This document shows positions 3,042-39,455 of a stretch of DNA of 64,000 nt, in pieces. The notes below the pieces were generated by a model. It saw only the letters and a program-made list of their open reading frames with translations. It made no database searches and had not been told where the DNA came from. The position numbers were made by a program, and so were the translations under genes. The number at the start of each line of letters is the position of its first letter. Position 1 is the first letter of the stretch. The DNA is from a virus (lineage: Duplodnaviria; Caudoviricetes), in IMG/VR virus record IMGVR_UViG_3300025295_000098, positions 1-64,000 of that record; one strand, given 5' to 3'.

Positions 3042-3200
3042 TTACCCCCGATCTCCACAGGGTTTATCCACAGCGGCAAGCGCGTCACGCAGCGCCTTGA
3101 TCCGAATAGCGCACGCTGCGGCCTCGATATGAGACCCACGGGATTTGTGGAACATCCTCCAGGATTCGGTTTCGGCGATGAGCTTGAGAATGGCTGTCAT
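3042..3200 (-). CDS. Small hypothetical phage protein
   Basis: MTAILKLIAETESW..., 52 aa, ATGA-coupled to the upstream ORF; absent from the ORF track (too short). Confidence 0.5.
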   Translation of the reverse strand: MTAILKLIAETESWRMFHKSRGSHIEAAACAIRIKALRDALAAVDKPCGDRG

Positions 3201-3412
3201 TCCCCATCCCTACCTTTGCTCTGCGCCTTGATCCGCTCGCGCTCAATCTGACGGGCATCACGCTCATGAAGCTTTTCAGCCAATAGAACACCAAGCATGC
3301 CAGGCCACATTAGGCTGACGAGAAAGCTTTGCCTGCCTATGCGCATGCCTGCGAAGACCAGCAAGTAGACAATAACGATGAGAATGAGCATGTAGAGTGG
3401 GTAATCTGTCAT
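3197..3412 (-). CDS. Small membrane protein
   Basis: MTDYPLYMLILIVIVYLLVFAG..., hydrophobic N-half, ATGA-coupled. Confidence 0.6.
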   Translation of the reverse strand: MTDYPLYMLILIVIVYLLVFAGMRIGRQSFLVSLMWPGMLGVLLAEKLHERDARQIERERIKAQSKGRDGE

Positions 3413-28630: not shown

Positions 28631-29323
28631 ATGAAAATGGCGGCACTGGCATTGCAAGAGCAGGACACACGAGATTTCGCTGATATAGTCGCGCAACGGC
28701 GGAAGCGGCTTATCGGCCGAGATTGGTACGCGATCCGGACTGCCCCCGGCACACAGCGAATGGCCCGACATGTCGAAGACGCTCCGATCCATCGTATCGG
28801 AGAGAGCATCATCGAGCGCAATCTCCGCAACGAGGGGATCAGCGTCTACATGCCGGCGTATTGGTACGAGGGCATTCACCACCGCAACCGGAAGGTCATC
28901 CAGCGTCGTCTGCCGCTGTTGGTCGGATATGCGTTCGTGAACCTCGAAAACCTGAATTTCGAGAGGGTGCGCGACGTCGACGGCGTGGTGTGTTTCCTCC
29001 GGTCCGAGTTCGGTCCGCTCCGGTTCAGTGGAGACGATCTTGCCGTCATCGCTGCCGAAGAGTTGACGCGGCGTCAGGAGTTCCGGCGCGAACGGATCAC
29101 CCGAATCCAAAATGAAACCGCCGGACAGGCCATGCAGCTCCGCGGCAATCTCCGCAAGATCCTGCCGAAGGGCAGGGGCAATCGCATCAACCTCAAGGAT
29201 CAAGCTCTCCTCACCATCAAGGACTTGAAACCGGAGATGCAGAGCAAAGTCATGGGGATGTTGCTCCAATTGGAGCAGTTAGAGGCATATGAGGGGCTTG
29301 AAACCATAGATCGTGTTGCGTAA
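28631..29323 (+). CDS. NusG/RfaH-paralogue antiterminator (Q-equivalent position)
   Basis: NGN domain: WYAIRTAPG...IERNL...VYMP...PLLVGYAFV...DGVVCFL; C-terminus not KOW-like. Confidence 0.85.
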   Translation: MKMAALALQEQDTRDFADIVAQRRKRLIGRDWYAIRTAPGTQRMARHVEDAPIHRIGESIIERNLRNEGISVYMPAYWYEGIHHRNRKVIQRRLPLLVGYAFVNLENLNFERVRDVDGVVCFLRSEFGPLRFSGDDLAVIAAEELTRRQEFRRERITRIQNETAGQAMQLRGNLRKILPKGRGNRINLKDQALLTIKDLKPEMQSKVMGMLLQLEQLEAYEGLETIDRVA

Positions 29324-29417: not shown

Positions 29418-30230
29418 TTGGAGAAATGCGCCTTGGCGTTCATCGTTGATGGTGTAGCCCACATCCCTCTTCAGAAATCGAAAGGCCGCAAGCGGATGTT
29501 TGCGCTTATCGACGAGGAGGATTACGACCGCGTGTCTCGTTTAAAGTGGTACGCGGTCGCTTCGGGGAAGACCTTTTACGCTAGAGCCACCAGCGGTATC
29601 CTGTCGGCCCATCTGTATGGGATGCATTCCTATGTCATGCGGGCCCAAAAAGGGCAGCGCGTAGACCACGAAAACGGGAACGGCCTCGACAACCGGAAGG
29701 CCAATCTCCGCAAAGCCACGCCCGCCCAAAACACGTGGAATTCCTTCAAGCGCAGCGACCCGTGCAGTTCGAAGTTCAAAGGCGTCATCCTCACGAGTTC
29801 GGGGAAATGGGCAGCATCCATCACTCGAAACGGTGATCATCAGGTAATCGGGCTGTTTGACGATGAAGCCGAAGCAGCCCGCGCCTATGATGAAAAGGCG
29901 TTAGTGCTGTTCGGCGAGTTCGCTAAGACCAATGACGCCATGGGCTTATTCGAGAGCGATCAGGCAAGCCGGGTCACGGCATCGGACATGATGTTTGACC
30001 CGCGATCGATCGGCGATTTCAAAGCGGCGACGCCCGGCCAAATTTTCGACGGCAATGAAAACGTTGGAGACCGCGCTGCCGTCGGGATCGTGATCGGCCT
30101 TTGCAAGCACCCTCGCACGCGTCAAACCATGTATCGGCTCGATACAGGCGCCAAGGTGCATATGGATGCTTACATGGGTCGGCATCCATCAATCGAGGAA
30201 ATGGCTCTCTTTCGCGCCAGCCAAAATTGA
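29418..30230 (+). CDS. HNH-AP2 endonuclease
   Basis: VDHENGNGLDNRKANLR...N; SKFKGV...KWAASI...GLFDDEAEAARAYD. Confidence 0.9.
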   Translation: MEKCALAFIVDGVAHIPLQKSKGRKRMFALIDEEDYDRVSRLKWYAVASGKTFYARATSGILSAHLYGMHSYVMRAQKGQRVDHENGNGLDNRKANLRKATPAQNTWNSFKRSDPCSSKFKGVILTSSGKWAASITRNGDHQVIGLFDDEAEAARAYDEKALVLFGEFAKTNDAMGLFESDQASRVTASDMMFDPRSIGDFKAATPGQIFDGNENVGDRAAVGIVIGLCKHPRTRQTMYRLDTGAKVHMDAYMGRHPSIEEMALFRASQN

Positions 30231-30239
30231 ATTGTTTCA

Positions 30240-30317
30240 TGTCGGAGTAGAGCAGCCCGGTAGCTCGCTTGGCTCATAACCAAGAGGCCGCAGGTTCGAA
30301 TCCTGCCTCCGCAACCA
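30240..30317 (+). tRNA. tRNA-Met-like (CAT), initiator-type body
   Basis: D arm GAGC-AGCCCGGTA-GCTC, anticodon arm CTTGG-CTCATAA-CCAAG, T arm GCAGG-TTCGAAT-CCTGC, encoded ACCA; irregular top of acceptor stem. Confidence 0.9.
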
Positions 30318-30608: not shown

Positions 30609-31049
30609 ATGTCAGACGAGCATATGTGCCCGCGCCGCGCCGAAGGGCCGACTTTCACCTCTGGGCCTGACACCTGGCGTGAGGACGGATCGTGCTCATA
30701 CTGCGGCAGCCTGAATCCCGATACCCTCATGGCGCGCCTTGAGGCTGGTGATGTAAGGCTTGACCCGACGGATAAGACCTACAAGGTCTATTGCGAGAAC
30801 GCCGGCGGTGAGCAGTTCAAACAGACCTATCGCAATTGCCCAAGCGATGCGAATTGCAAGGGGCCTGACGATTGCTCCCACTGGGTGACGCGGGAGCGTA
30901 GCGGCACAAAGTTCTATTTCCAGCATTTGAGCGAAGACCAGAGAAAGCGGTTCGTCGACCTTCTCAACGCGAAAAAAGTCATGCTCGGCTACCCTGGATA
31001 CTTCTACGTCCCGCCGTTCTTTATTCAGTTCAAGGCGCCGGCGGCGTGA
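30609..31049 (+). CDS. Cys-rich hypothetical protein
   Basis: CPRR...CSYCGSL... Confidence 0.65.
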   Translation: MSDEHMCPRRAEGPTFTSGPDTWREDGSCSYCGSLNPDTLMARLEAGDVRLDPTDKTYKVYCENAGGEQFKQTYRNCPSDANCKGPDDCSHWVTRERSGTKFYFQHLSEDQRKRFVDLLNAKKVMLGYPGYFYVPPFFIQFKAPAA

Positions 31050-31104
31050 TCCTCTGGCGATCCCCATCCGCCTTCGCGATCGATAATCATCAAGGACGAT
31101 AGAG

Positions 31105-31524
31105 ATGGTTTGGTTTGTTCAGCCGCTGGAGCGCAAAGACAAAGACGGCAAGCCGTCCGGTCTGTGGCATCTCTGCGCGCAAAGCGACGAGGGCGGCGGC
31201 TTCTACACCGGCTGCAACCATGATCATGCTTCTGCCGAAGAAGCGCAGGACTGCATCGAGGCCAAGGTGCGCCTCGGCCAGGTGACGGGGTTTCCCTATG
31301 TGGCCTCGAAAATCAAGGTCAACGGCATTGAGTTCGAGGTCCATGGCGACATGATCAGCCATGAGCAGATCTGCGCACTCGCCGGCAAGCCAGTCCACGC
31401 CTCGGCCACCTATCTCGGTCCCCGAAAGGGCGACAGCGAGAGAAGCGGCATCACCCATGTCGGAAAGTCCGTCAAGCTCGAAGACGGCATGAGCTTCACC
31501 TGCGTCGTGACGGGCAACGCATGA
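31105..31524 (+). CDS. Protein with a C-terminal ubiquitin-like (multi-ubiquitin-type beta-grasp) domain
   Basis: IKVNG.EFEV....ISHEQICALA....TY......G....GKSVKLEDGMSF..V.TGNA resembles Multi_ubiq repeats (recognised from memory). Confidence 0.55.
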   Translation: MVWFVQPLERKDKDGKPSGLWHLCAQSDEGGGFYTGCNHDHASAEEAQDCIEAKVRLGQVTGFPYVASKIKVNGIEFEVHGDMISHEQICALAGKPVHASATYLGPRKGDSERSGITHVGKSVKLEDGMSFTCVVTGNA

Positions 31525-31655
31525 TCATCCCCCGCTACATCCAGCGCGCCGCTTTCGTCGTCGCAATCGTTCTATTCTGCCTCGTAGGGCTGTTCGCCAT
31601 GTCGGGGTGCCAGACGTATCAGCCGCCGGGCCAGGATCTGTGGCGGGCGCTATAA
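31521..31655 (+). CDS. Small lipoprotein
   Basis: 44 aa; hydrophobic leader and lipobox AMSG-C; absent from the ORF track. Confidence 0.55.
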   Translation: MIIPRYIQRAAFVVAIVLFCLVGLFAMSGCQTYQPPGQDLWRAL

Positions 31656-31656
31656 C

Positions 31657-31872
31657 TCATCGTTCCTCGGGAGTGCGCAACCGGCGGGTTGAAAACGATC
31701 CGCTACTCCGACGCTCTTCGACAAACTTTCTACATCCGTCATGCGGGCAATAGACCAACTCGACGTCAACAAAGCCGGGCTGGCCCTCGTATTCCAAGCA
31801 CTCGAACTCCTGACCGCAATGAGGGCAGGTCACGACTTCGGAATGGGTATTATCTTGGCCTTGCAGAAACAT
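31657..31872 (-). CDS. Small Zn-ribbon protein, antisense to the late operon
   Basis: CPHCG...CPHDGC. Confidence 0.55.
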   Translation of the reverse strand: MFLQGQDNTHSEVVTCPHCGQEFECLEYEGQPGFVDVELVYCPHDGCRKFVEERRSSGSFSTRRLRTPEER

Positions 31873-31895: not shown

Positions 31896-32507
31896 ATGCC
31901 AGTCCTGAAAAACCCCCGGCATGAGAAGTTTGCCCAAGCTCTCGCCAAAGGCAATACAGCAGATGACGCATATGCCGCCGCTGGCTTCAAACCTGACCGT
32001 GGAAATGCCTCTCGCCTACAGCATAAAGACAACATCGTACAACGCGTGTCCGAGCTTTTGGAGTGGGAGCAGACGGTAGAGCGAAAGGCCACCGAAAAGG
32101 CCATCGAGAAGCTGGCCATCACCAAAGAGCGCGTCCTGGCCGAACTTGCCAAGATCGGGTTCTCTGACATCCGCAAGGCCATCAAGTGGCAGGGCACGCT
32201 TGTAACCGAGGAAGACAATCCGGACGGCGGTGATGTCCTCGTGATCAAAAATGTCGTCACGAACAATGTCCAGCTTGTATCGAGCGACGAGATCGACGAC
32301 GAGACGGCCGGCGCGATCGCTGAGATCAGCCAGAACTCGACCGGCGGCATTAAGTTGAAACTTCACGACAAGAAGGGTGCGCTCGTGGACATCGGCAAGC
32401 ACCTTGGCATGTTCGTGGAGCGGCACGAGCATACAGGCAAGGACGGCGCACCGATCCAGACCGAGACGAGAACATGGCGGGAAGTGCTGCGCAGCGAGAA
32501 GAGCTAG
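31896..32507 (+). CDS. terS: Terminase small subunit
   Basis: MPVLKNPRHEKFAQALAKG...AY..AG; ITKERVLAELAKIGFSD; KLHDKKGALVDIGKHLGMF. Confidence 0.88.
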   Translation: MPVLKNPRHEKFAQALAKGNTADDAYAAAGFKPDRGNASRLQHKDNIVQRVSELLEWEQTVERKATEKAIEKLAITKERVLAELAKIGFSDIRKAIKWQGTLVTEEDNPDGGDVLVIKNVVTNNVQLVSSDEIDDETAGAIAEISQNSTGGIKLKLHDKKGALVDIGKHLGMFVERHEHTGKDGAPIQTETRTWREVLRSEKS

Positions 32508-37442: not shown

Positions 37443-39455
37443 ATGCCAGCGGTCAGTGAAAAGCAGAGGCGTGCGATGTTCGCAGCGGCAGAAGGGAATA
37501 GCACGTTGGGCATCCCGAAGAAGGTCGGCGAGGAGTTCGTCGCCGCCGACGCCAGCAATGGCCATGCCGCCGGTATCCTCTACGTGGCGCCGGATGGCGA
37601 TGTGCTGCTTCTTCGGCGGTCCTCGACTGAAACGAACTATGCCGGTCACTGGGCTCTCCCGGGCGGCAAGGGCGAGGAAGGCGAGACGCCCGAGCAGACC
37701 GCAGACCGCGAGGCGCGTGAAGAGATGGGCCCGCTCATCCCGGAAAGCGCGAAGCGGATGAAACTGTTGGATAGCCGAGTCACTCCGACCAAGATGGCGT
37801 TCCACACCTTCGCTCAGGCGGTTCCGGAGAAGTTCGTTCCGACACTGAACGAGGAGCATAGCGGCTACGCCTGGTCGCCGTTCGACCAGCTGCCCGGTCC
37901 GATCCATCCCGCGGTGAAAAGTACGCTGGATGACCGGCTCGGAACCGATGGACTCGAAACGCCGGAAGATTGGGCGATGCTCAAGACCCGTCTCGTCAAC
38001 TGGTTGAGCTACGATGAAGACGGCGAGGAAGAGGTCGCCACGGCGCAAGATTCGATCGCGATGGACCGGGACAGTGTCCGCCGCATCGATCAGGATGGCC
38101 ATCTTTTCGTAGAAACCACGCCGATCTCGAAGGCCGTGGTCAACCCGTACTACGGCAAGGAGATCCCCGGTTTTCAGAAGCTGGGCCTTGATCCGGAGCG
38201 GATCTACAACCTGCTTCGTGACCCGAAGGAGTTGAAGGCCGCCGCGACGACATTCGCAGGCAAGCCGCTGCTGCTGATCCACAAGCCGGTCAATGCTGAT
38301 GAGCATCCCCGCGAGATCGTGGTGGGCTCGGTCGGCGATGATGTTGAGTTCAAGGCCCCGTACCTGATGGCCCCGCTGAATATCTGGGACGCTGAGGCGA
38401 TCAAGCTCATCGAATCCAAGAAGCAGCGCGAGCTATCGTGCGGGTATCAATACGAACCTGTCATGGAACCGGGAACCTACGAAGGCGAACGTTATGACGG
38501 TCGGATGACGAACATCAAAGGAAATCACCTCGCGATCGTCGAATCAGGACGGGCCGGGGCGGATGTCTTTGTTGCAGACCAAGCACTGAAACCAAAGGAG
38601 ACTGCAGCCATGGCGAAGACGCCAGTTCTATCCCGCAAGGCATCCGTCGCTCATGGCGCGATCCTCGCATATCTCCGCCCCAAGCTCGCTCAGGATGCCA
38701 AGATCGATATCACGGCGATCCTGAAGGACGTGACGGCAAAGAACTACAATCCGGTGACCATCGCCGATGGCCTGAAGAAGGCCGCGACCGGCAAGCTGGC
38801 CCAGGATGCCGACATCAGCGACGTCGTCGATCTTCTCGATACGCTGAAGACCGTCGAAGGTGCCGAAGACGATCTCGAACCGAACTCCGGCCAGCTCAAC
38901 GCCGGCAAGGTGCGTGGCGAGGATGAAGAGCCCGATGGCGAGCCGGACCAGAAGTCGCGGGTCATGGAATTCCTCAAGGACAAGCTGTCCGAGGACGACA
39001 TGAAGGCCTGCGACGAGCTCTGGAATCAGGAAGCGATGGACGAAGACGCCGACGAAGACGAAGGCGCCAGGAAGAAGGCCGAAGACGAGGCCGAGGAGAA
39101 GAAGGACATGGTCGACAAGAAGGCAATGGATGCGGCAATCAATGCCGCAGTGGCGAACGAGCGCCGCAACGCTCGCGAGATCGAAGCCGCCAAGGAAGAC
39201 GTCCGCCCCTATATCGGCGCGGTCGCCATGGCCCATGACAGCGCCGCCGATGTCTATCGCACGGCTCTGACCTCTCTCGGCGTCGATATCGCCGGCGTTC
39301 ACCCCAGCGCTTTCCGCGCCATCCTGAAGGCGCAGCAGATCCCCGGTACGCAGCAGCGGCAGACGTCGCCTTCCGTTGCCATGGATGCCAAGGGAGCTTC
39401 CTCGTTCTACGAGATGTTCCCGGAAGCAAAGTCGCACATCGTCAAGACGCTCTAA
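37443..39455 (+). CDS. Nudix hydrolase fused to a DUF2213-type head maturation protease/scaffold
   Basis: Nudix box GGKGEEGETPEQTADREAREEMG; DUF2213-like ISKAVVNPYYGKEIP...ELSCGY...GNHLAIVESGRAG; acidic scaffold-like tail. Confidence 0.88.
   Translation: MPAVSEKQRRAMFAAAEGNSTLGIPKKVGEEFVAADASNGHAAGILYVAPDGDVLLLRRSSTETNYAGHWALPGGKGEEGETPEQTADREAREEMGPLIPESAKRMKLLDSRVTPTKMAFHTFAQAVPEKFVPTLNEEHSGYAWSPFDQLPGPIHPAVKSTLDDRLGTDGLETPEDWAMLKTRLVNWLSYDEDGEEEVATAQDSIAMDRDSVRRIDQDGHLFVETTPISKAVVNPYYGKEIPGFQKLGLDPERIYNLLRDPKELKAAATTFAGKPLLLIHKPVNADEHPREIVVGSVGDDVEFKAPYLMAPLNIWDAEAIKLIESKKQRELSCGYQYEPVMEPGTYEGERYDGRMTNIKGNHLAIVESGRAGADVFVADQALKPKETAAMAKTPVLSRKASVAHGAILAYLRPKLAQDAKIDITAILKDVTAKNYNPVTIADGLKKAATGKLAQDADISDVVDLLDTLKTVEGAEDDLEPNSGQLNAGKVRGEDEEPDGEPDQKSRVMEFLKDKLSEDDMKACDELWNQEAMDEDADEDEGARKKAEDEAEEKKDMVDKKAMDAAINAAVANERRNAREIEAAKEDVRPYIGAVAMAHDSAADVYRTALTSLGVDIAGVHPSAFRAILKAQQIPGTQQRQTSPSVAMDAKGASSFYEMFPEAKSHIVKTL

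Follow-up and report, generated by a model that had tools for sequence, protein, structure and literature searches.

The closest described system to the protein examined here is Bub, of which the Type II operon encodes the ubiquitin-like (Ubl) protein BubA, a fused E2-E1 enzyme (BubBD) and BubE. The published studies of Bub have described diverse BubA architectures and an oxyester chemistry, and in none of them was a Bub operon shown to protect against phage (PMC11601596, PMC11601603); antiphage activity has not been demonstrated for this system and no protection from phage was observed in E. coli (PMC11601596). For Bil, activity against phages has been proven (as cited in PMC11601603 and PMC11601596). 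The literature that we searched contained no report of a phage-encoded mimic of BubA or BilA, or of any anti-Bil or anti-Bub factor. The gene described in the present work is carried by a Rhizobium-type prophage, and on the basis of sequence and model comparisons the most fitting description of its product is that of a homologue of Type II BubA which is an orphan, is borne by phages and is located behind a small putative zinc module.

The window that was analysed (64,000 nucleotides) covers the initial 64 kb of a provirus record (G000) that is 78.6 kb in length. Within it, the gene for the Ubl protein (P0001; 139 aa) extends from 31105 to 31524 on the plus strand, and direct reading of the sequence shows a Shine-Dalgarno-like AAGGA at 31092-31096, 8 nt 5' of its ATG. 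Homologues of this protein with E values below 1e-22 number 27, of which 19 are full length and show 57-79% identity to it. In the comparison with a near-identical prophage (L084), the 88 codons compared differ by 11 synonymous changes and one non-synonymous change. In view of these close homologues and of the 11:1 ratio of synonymous to non-synonymous differences, the ORF is judged from its sequence to be a real gene under purifying selection. The protein gave no match in PHROGs, NCBIfam or PADLOC, and a single-sequence phmmer search against the PDB returned nothing meaningful.

The Ubl gene is located on the late strand, where it is preceded by genes for a NusG-like late antiterminator (28631-29323; phrog_25909, E=2e-57), an AP2-domain HNH endonuclease (29418-30230) and a phage-borne tRNA-Met (30241-30317), all three of which precede the packaging genes, and by a 146-aa ORF. 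It is followed by a 44-aa lipoprotein-like ORF, a minus-strand 71-aa ORF and then the genes for TerS (from the ATG at 31896), TerL, the portal protein and MuF, so that its placement just upstream of the terminase is borne out. A scan for promoters and terminators gave signals at background level only, and no promoter of its own was detected. Expression of the gene is presumed to be late from gene order only; this is also the sole basis for the earlier statement that it is expressed when tails assemble, and in relatives the gene is found at other borders between modules.

The C-terminal part of the protein (residues 67-139; 31303-31521) is predicted, from profiles and a model, to form a single beta-grasp domain of the Multi_ubiq or Type II BubA kind. 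The Pfam model Multi_ubiq (PF14452) matched residues 69-134 by hmmscan with E=7e-5 and 23.4 bits, against a gathering cut-off of 24.5, and in a six-frame search it scored 24.4-25 bits at this gene; two relatives are above the cut-off (P0142 with 34.7 bits and P0169 with 27.8 bits). As another homologue (P0020) is annotated in NCBI as a "multiubiquitin domain-containing protein", the assignment of a ubiquitin-like domain is in itself not new. In an AlphaFold2 model based upon a 79-sequence alignment (pLDDT 94.5), residues 67-139 adopt a beta-grasp. The VIA structural Z scores of this module were 10.9 to the Type II BubA entry 9cd2_B (28% identity over 72 residues), 9.9 to 9d5b, 8.4 to 9d59 and 8.1 to BubA(155-229) in the E1 complex 9eav, whereas generic ubiquitin folds reached only a Z of about 6. 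Bacterial multi-ubiquitin and BubA entries also ranked first for this module in Foldseek; in BFVD, a Foldseek search with it gave weak ubiquitin matches only (E values of 0.05 or worse). The fold call of the original prediction is thus supported by the model and by the top-ranking matches of both structural searches.

The likeness of this domain to multi-ubiquitin repeats can be specified further as homology to Type II BubA. A profile built from 44 stand-alone phage members matched domain 3 of the Type II BubA from E. coli ZDHYS365 (9cd2) with E=6e-11, and alignment by hhalign of the phage family to a Type II BubA alignment had a probability of 99% (E=2.9e-18). When 300 Rhizobiaceae genomes were searched with the phage-family profile, only Type II BubA genes were matched (best E=1.7e-12), and none of the Type I BubAB fusions were found, although these are present in the same genomes and score high there on Pfam Multi_ubiq. 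The Type II identity of the cellular relatives was checked by their gene neighbours, viz. a DUF6791+ThiF fusion (BubBD), DUF6527 (BubE) and often a pair of HTH and M78 regulators. By profile and by predicted structure, it is Type II BubA that provides, with its C-terminal domains, the nearest relatives of residues 67-139.

The protein ends with the residues VVTGNA, of which the last four (T136-G137-N138-A139; codons at 31510-31521) form a tail that is conserved in the family. The domain is present at the extreme C-terminus in all 103 family representatives; 60 of them end in TGNA, the last residue is Ala in 90, and T136 and A139 are invariant in 20 full-length homologues. Ten BubA-type sequences were aligned, for seven of which a neighbouring BubE gene was confirmed; each of the ten ends in T-x-[RKQE]-S, and the number of residues after the GM.F.V strand is equal in these sequences and in the phage family. 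The tail of 9cd2 is also of this length, and the PDB and hhalign alignments both stop two residues short of each C-terminus. The Type II BubA of E. coli was conjugated in vitro without processing (PMC11601596). As the phage tail is equal in length to this unprocessed tail, which ends in Ser, Ala139 rather than Gly137 aligns with the terminal residue of BubA and is likely the reactive or recognised end. Cleavage after Gly137, which had been suggested originally, is not favoured by this end-to-end alignment; it is unnecessary in view of the conjugation of unprocessed Type II BubA, and in the model it would leave just three residues after the last strand, making the tail too short. A free and conserved tail is a hallmark of Ubl proteins that enter an E1 active site, for which the structure of BubA with BubCD may be consulted (PMC11601596). 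The strictly C-terminal location of the domain, together with its constrained free tail, is what would be expected of a Ubl that enters the active site of an E1 or a peptidase, and not of a passive binding domain.

The N-terminal module (residues 1-66; 31105-31302) consists, in the AlphaFold2 model, of a beta-hairpin, a short strand and a helix. Its Cys/His motif, which had been noted originally and is confirmed here, comprises C24, C37-N-H39-D-H41 and C50, with C37, H39, H41 and C50 as the likely zinc ligands. Among the relatives of this module C50 is invariant and H41 nearly so, and the fourth ligand is seen to swap, with C37 but not C53 present in about 69 proteins and C53 but not C37 in 18; the site is wholly lost in eight relatives. 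The near-invariance of H41 and C50 and the covariation of C37 with C53 are the grounds on which a putative zinc site is proposed, and the covariation of the ligands fits a structural role for it. No match to this module was found in Pfam or among PDB sequences. In the ESM Atlas, a DUF1508 cluster was present among the structural look-alikes of residues 1-63 (TM 0.53-0.57, with a lower-confidence model), which is of interest as some of the cellular Bub Ubls are DUF1508-Ubl fusions (PMC11601603). However, in Pfam neither the Ubl protein nor 28 relatives of its N-module matched DUF1508 (PF07411), and the phage module differs from the DUF1508-Ubl1 architecture in possessing the Cys/His site; the model-based likeness to DUF1508 is a lead only.

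An exhaustive HMMER search identified 189 relatives of the protein, which match either residues 1-66 or residues 67-139. The C-module family is made up of about 100 cluster representatives (103 tallied), in 45 of which the module is alone, in 23 it follows the zinc-type N-module and in the remaining 35 it is behind other N-regions; in one of the latter (P0046) it is found behind a Lar-like zinc ribbon. The stand-alone C-module is about 73 aa in length and the stand-alone N-module 60-80 aa, and the latter is also found before unrelated C-terminal regions. A profile search of genome contigs based upon the full-length alignment gave no confirmed relative, and a search for longer fused forms yielded one true Type II BubA and was otherwise uninformative. 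In a tblastn search of 50,697 deposited phage genomes, a single metagenomic match was obtained, covering the Ubl half only, which indicates that the family is nearly absent from cultured phages.

The exchange of these modules can be observed at the DNA level in the sister prophage L084. From codon 52 on (the 3' 264 nt), its sequence is about 96% identical to that of the window, whereas the 5' parts are unrelated, and an unrelated 92-aa ORF in L084 ends exactly at this mosaic junction (about 6010 in L084; near codon E52, 31258-31260, in the window). As the identity begins only at codon 52, L084 encodes a Ubl-only protein of 93 aa in the same slot. The location of the gene also varies. It is found before TerS in the window, L001, L067 and L084, after MuF in L003, between the tail and lysis genes in L069, and alone, in a non-prophage context, on a 578-kb replicon of Rhizobium sp. 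CCGE531 (L068); another genome that carries a family gene (G309) is a complete non-integrated phage genome with terminal repeats. The small ORFs that flank the gene likewise vary between relatives. On account of its varied genomic slots, its differing flanks and the sharp recombination junction inside it, the Ubl gene behaves as a mobile accessory and not as a core structural gene.

Some of the neighbouring genes show features of their own. The 44-aa ORF (31521-31655, plus strand), the start of which overlaps the stop of the Ubl gene (ATGA) and which is thus translationally coupled to it, is predicted to encode a small lipoprotein, in which a signal peptide, an MSGC that resembles a lipobox and, at the C-terminus, a conserved YQPPGxxLWRAL are seen. 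The Ubl gene has a version of this ORF behind it in L001, L007, L008 and L084, whereas in L067 there is none; it is a frequent neighbour of the Ubl gene and at most a candidate functional partner, and its product may be an exclusion or spanin-like lipoprotein. The 146-aa ORF directly upstream of the Ubl gene (30609-31049, plus strand) is Cys-rich, and its place is taken in L001 and L067 by another small ORF that is rich in Cys (CxCVGPQNGxPxCPC). The 71-aa ORF that lies between the Ubl unit and TerS (31657-31872, minus strand) is zinc-ribbon-like with two pairs of the CPHC / CPHDGC type. The ORFs in the same position in L067 and L001 are unrelated to it, which marks this position as a variable insertion slot; the minus-strand small ORFs before TerS were also considered as part of the Ubl unit and rejected, as they are mutually unrelated in three relatives. 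Further downstream, a 670-aa head-module protein (37443-39455, plus strand) has a NUDIX hydrolase domain fused to DUF2213 (Pa193_gp24-like), a fusion that is kept in L001, L067 and L084; NUDIX enzymes are not usually built into head proteins, and this one could have nucleotide signals or caps as its substrates. Lastly, L084 encodes at 3177-3398, beside a DUF1643 gene, a 73-aa protein with a match to the RF-1 (peptide chain release factor) domain.

The original prediction had noted that the window has no E1, E2 or JAB gene, and this holds for the whole 78.6-kb provirus, in which no ThiF-type E1, Prok-JAB, DUF6527/BubE or DUF6791 (Bub E2) was detected. ThiF and BubE were also not found in any of three gene-carrying phage genomes that are 90-100% complete (G000, G307 and G309), the search for Prok-JAB and DUF6791 having covered the provirus G000, and the annotated flanks of seven loci (L001, L002, L003, L067, L068, L069 and L084) contained no E1, E2, BubE or JAB genes. 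The Ubl gene is not part of an operon with an E1 (ThiF), an E2 or a BubE/JAB peptidase. On one other gene-carrying contig (L085; G308:C1:177-254, minus strand), a 170-aa ORF gave a sub-threshold DUF6527/BubE-like match of 15.4 bits, which covers model positions 19-45, i.e., the zinc-finger part, and is probably due to a generic zinc ribbon.

Bub operons are present in bacteria of the kind that these phages infect. Of 300 sampled Rhizobiaceae species, 28 contained BubE and 23 Multi_ubiq (about 9% with Bub); the phage-type Ubl gene was found in none of the 300 genomes. Among the genomes that encode a full-length homologue, only that of Rhizobium sp. CCGE531 could be searched, and it is hence the single genome on which the co-occurrence of the phage Ubl with Bub is based; it possesses two Bub operons, one of Type II on the chromosome and a Type I-like operon located 30 kb from the Ubl gene. 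The Bub-like operon on the 578-kb replicon (L077) encodes a separate Ubl (134 aa), an E2-like protein (132 aa), a 462-aa protein and BubE, i.e., a Type I-like gene set in which Ubl and E2 are unfused. Additionally, a complete Type II Bub operon is present in a Mesorhizobium whose genome also contains a related prophage (73% identity in the portal protein), and this prophage is without the Ubl gene. The Bub operons within the host range show an opportunity for interaction, and not interaction itself.

Taking these observations together, we lean by a small measure towards the view that the phage protein engages host Bub enzymes in some way, whether as a decoy or by making use of them, a reading that is plausible and specific. 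That it acts as a decoy, competing with host BubA and blunting host Ubl conjugation, is proposed tentatively, as something rather short of an even prospect. During lytic growth, the phage Ubl would use its BubA-like body and tail to dock on the host BubBD (E2-E1) or on the BubE protease. Once docked, it would be a competitor of host BubA, a decoy substrate or dead-end ligand that is monomeric and forms no filaments, as a result of which host Ubl conjugation would be blunted. For the zinc module at the N-terminus, the role of an accessory that can be exchanged is proposed, as sister phages carry the Ubl module alone or behind other N-domains. Of the decoy function against Ubl-conjugation defence that had been proposed originally, the part that stands is supported by the homology to a conjugation-pathway Ubl, the conserved tail and the variable position of the gene, but the relative is Bub and not Bil. 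The accompanying idea of conjugation to virion proteins was borrowed from Bil; for Bub, neither antiphage activity nor targets have been established (PMC11601596). As no antiphage phenotype has been demonstrated for Bub, there is perhaps nothing for the phage to counter, and because the G-N-A tail differs from x-[RKQE]-S, recognition by a Bub E1 is not assured.

Beta-grasp domains also act as plain protein-binding modules. It is conceivable, though in our estimate unlikely, that the phage domain is a conjugation-independent adaptor for a task internal to the phage, e.g., an accessory of packaging or head assembly, a regulator or a chaperone, in which case the likeness to BubA would reflect common descent only. 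The gene adjoins terminase or MuF genes in several of the phages, Ubl domains without conjugation are common (cf. the generic Ubl matches with Z of about 6), no E1 is present on the phage and about 91% of the species of the host family are without Bub. However, the position of the gene is not tied to a single module, its product matches none of the PHROG structural families and the N-terminal partner is freely exchanged; moreover, the obligate C-terminal place of the domain and a tail whose final four residues rank with the most conserved of the family are not needed by a simple adaptor.

The BubA-like body and tail and the orphan status of the protein would serve equally if it were a genuine substrate of the host Bub E1 and E2, conjugated with its N-terminal cargo to host or phage proteins to the benefit of the phage. 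The varied N-modules (the zinc module, the Lar-like ribbon and others) resemble exchangeable cargo and mirror the diverse N-domains of cellular BubA and BilA (PMC11601603), but 45 of the 103 members are bare domains that have no cargo and the phage would depend on a host system found in only about 9% of host species, and we regard such hijacking as improbable. A role in lysogenic conversion, in which a BubA-type Ubl supplied by the prophage excludes superinfecting phages, alone or with a host Bub operon, would accord with the presence of the gene on prophages and on the non-prophage CCGE531 replicon with its two Bub operons, with a coupled small lipoprotein gene of a kind often used for exclusion and with the fact that Bub operons themselves ride on mobile elements (PMC11601596), but it is very improbable given that the gene is on the late strand between the NusG-like antiterminator and the terminase with no detected promoter of its own, and that the family is also present in the non-integrated phage G309.

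In its broader form, the decoy proposal is that a family of BubA mimics is dedicated to this purpose in phages that infect Rhizobiales and other soil bacteria, each with a single beta-grasp and a TGNA tail, alone or behind swappable N-domains, which plugs the host Bub E2-E1 or BubE; we put this forward with considerable doubt. If true, a bacterial pathway of ubiquitin-like conjugation would for the first time be seen to be countered by phages, and an action of Bub operons against phages would gain its first indirect evidence; a decoy would parallel the tampering of eukaryotic viruses with ubiquitin and ISG15 and constitute a new class of phage anti-defence. If the domain is an adaptor only, the finding comes down to an accessory gene of the ordinary sort, the fold of which is already known. 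The biochemistry of Bub was characterised in 2024, and an enzyme-free phage Ubl family with a constrained tail provides a link between Bub and phage biology. It also offers concrete reagents, in that the protein is a candidate inhibitor or substrate, Rhizobium and Mesorhizobium supply natural pairs of host and phage, and the motif of the tail can be mutated.

A comparison with the known systems places the phage protein at different distances from each of them. In Bil, the ISG15-like BilA is conjugated to the central tail fibre of the phage; a ubiquitin-like fold is common to Type I BubA/BilA and the phage Ubl, but the Type I BilA has two beta-grasps and the phage protein one, and the Type I and Bil pathways adenylate a free C-terminus. 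Identity of the protein with BilA was rejected in view of its single beta-grasp, its terminal Ala, the lack of E1 and JAB genes and the lack of a PADLOC match. Type I BubA, which is part of a BubAB fusion, is a substrate of the BubCD JAB domain, which cuts it behind a conserved Gly, whereas the phage Ubl has no terminal Gly and the phage no JAB peptidase to process it. Eukaryotic viruses also carry ubiquitin genes (e.g., baculovirus v-ubi and the ubiquitins of giant viruses), and the tail assembly protein I of phage lambda is ubiquitin-like, a tail-assembly factor that is paired with a JAB peptidase. The eukaryotic viral ubiquitins resemble the phage Ubl in being of a host-type ubiquitin fold without the full enzyme cascade; they are, however, eukaryotic ubiquitin proper and lambda I has its JAB partner, neither of which applies to the phage protein.

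The comparison is closest with Type II BubA, as represented by the E. coli ZDHYS365 protein (PDB 9cd2) and by single-domain Rhizobiaceae proteins (L044 and L057). Several differences are seen. The Type II operon brings BubA together with its enzymes, whereas the phage Ubl has no adjacent E1, E2 or BubE and no CapH/CapP regulators; the phage tail is T-G-N-A and that of Type II BubA T-x-[RKQE]-S; the GD..RSG loop is specific for the phage family and is missing from BubA; and, being single-domain, the phage protein lacks the Ca-dependent filament-forming domains 1-2 of the Ubl3 forms of BubA. On the other hand, the two share the beta-grasp fold (Z of 10.9, 28% identity), the motifs IxVNG, SYE..V.LA, TVTY and GM.F.V and a tail of equal length that ends in a small residue, and BubA (PMC11601603) and the phage Ubl family both carry diverse N-terminal domains.
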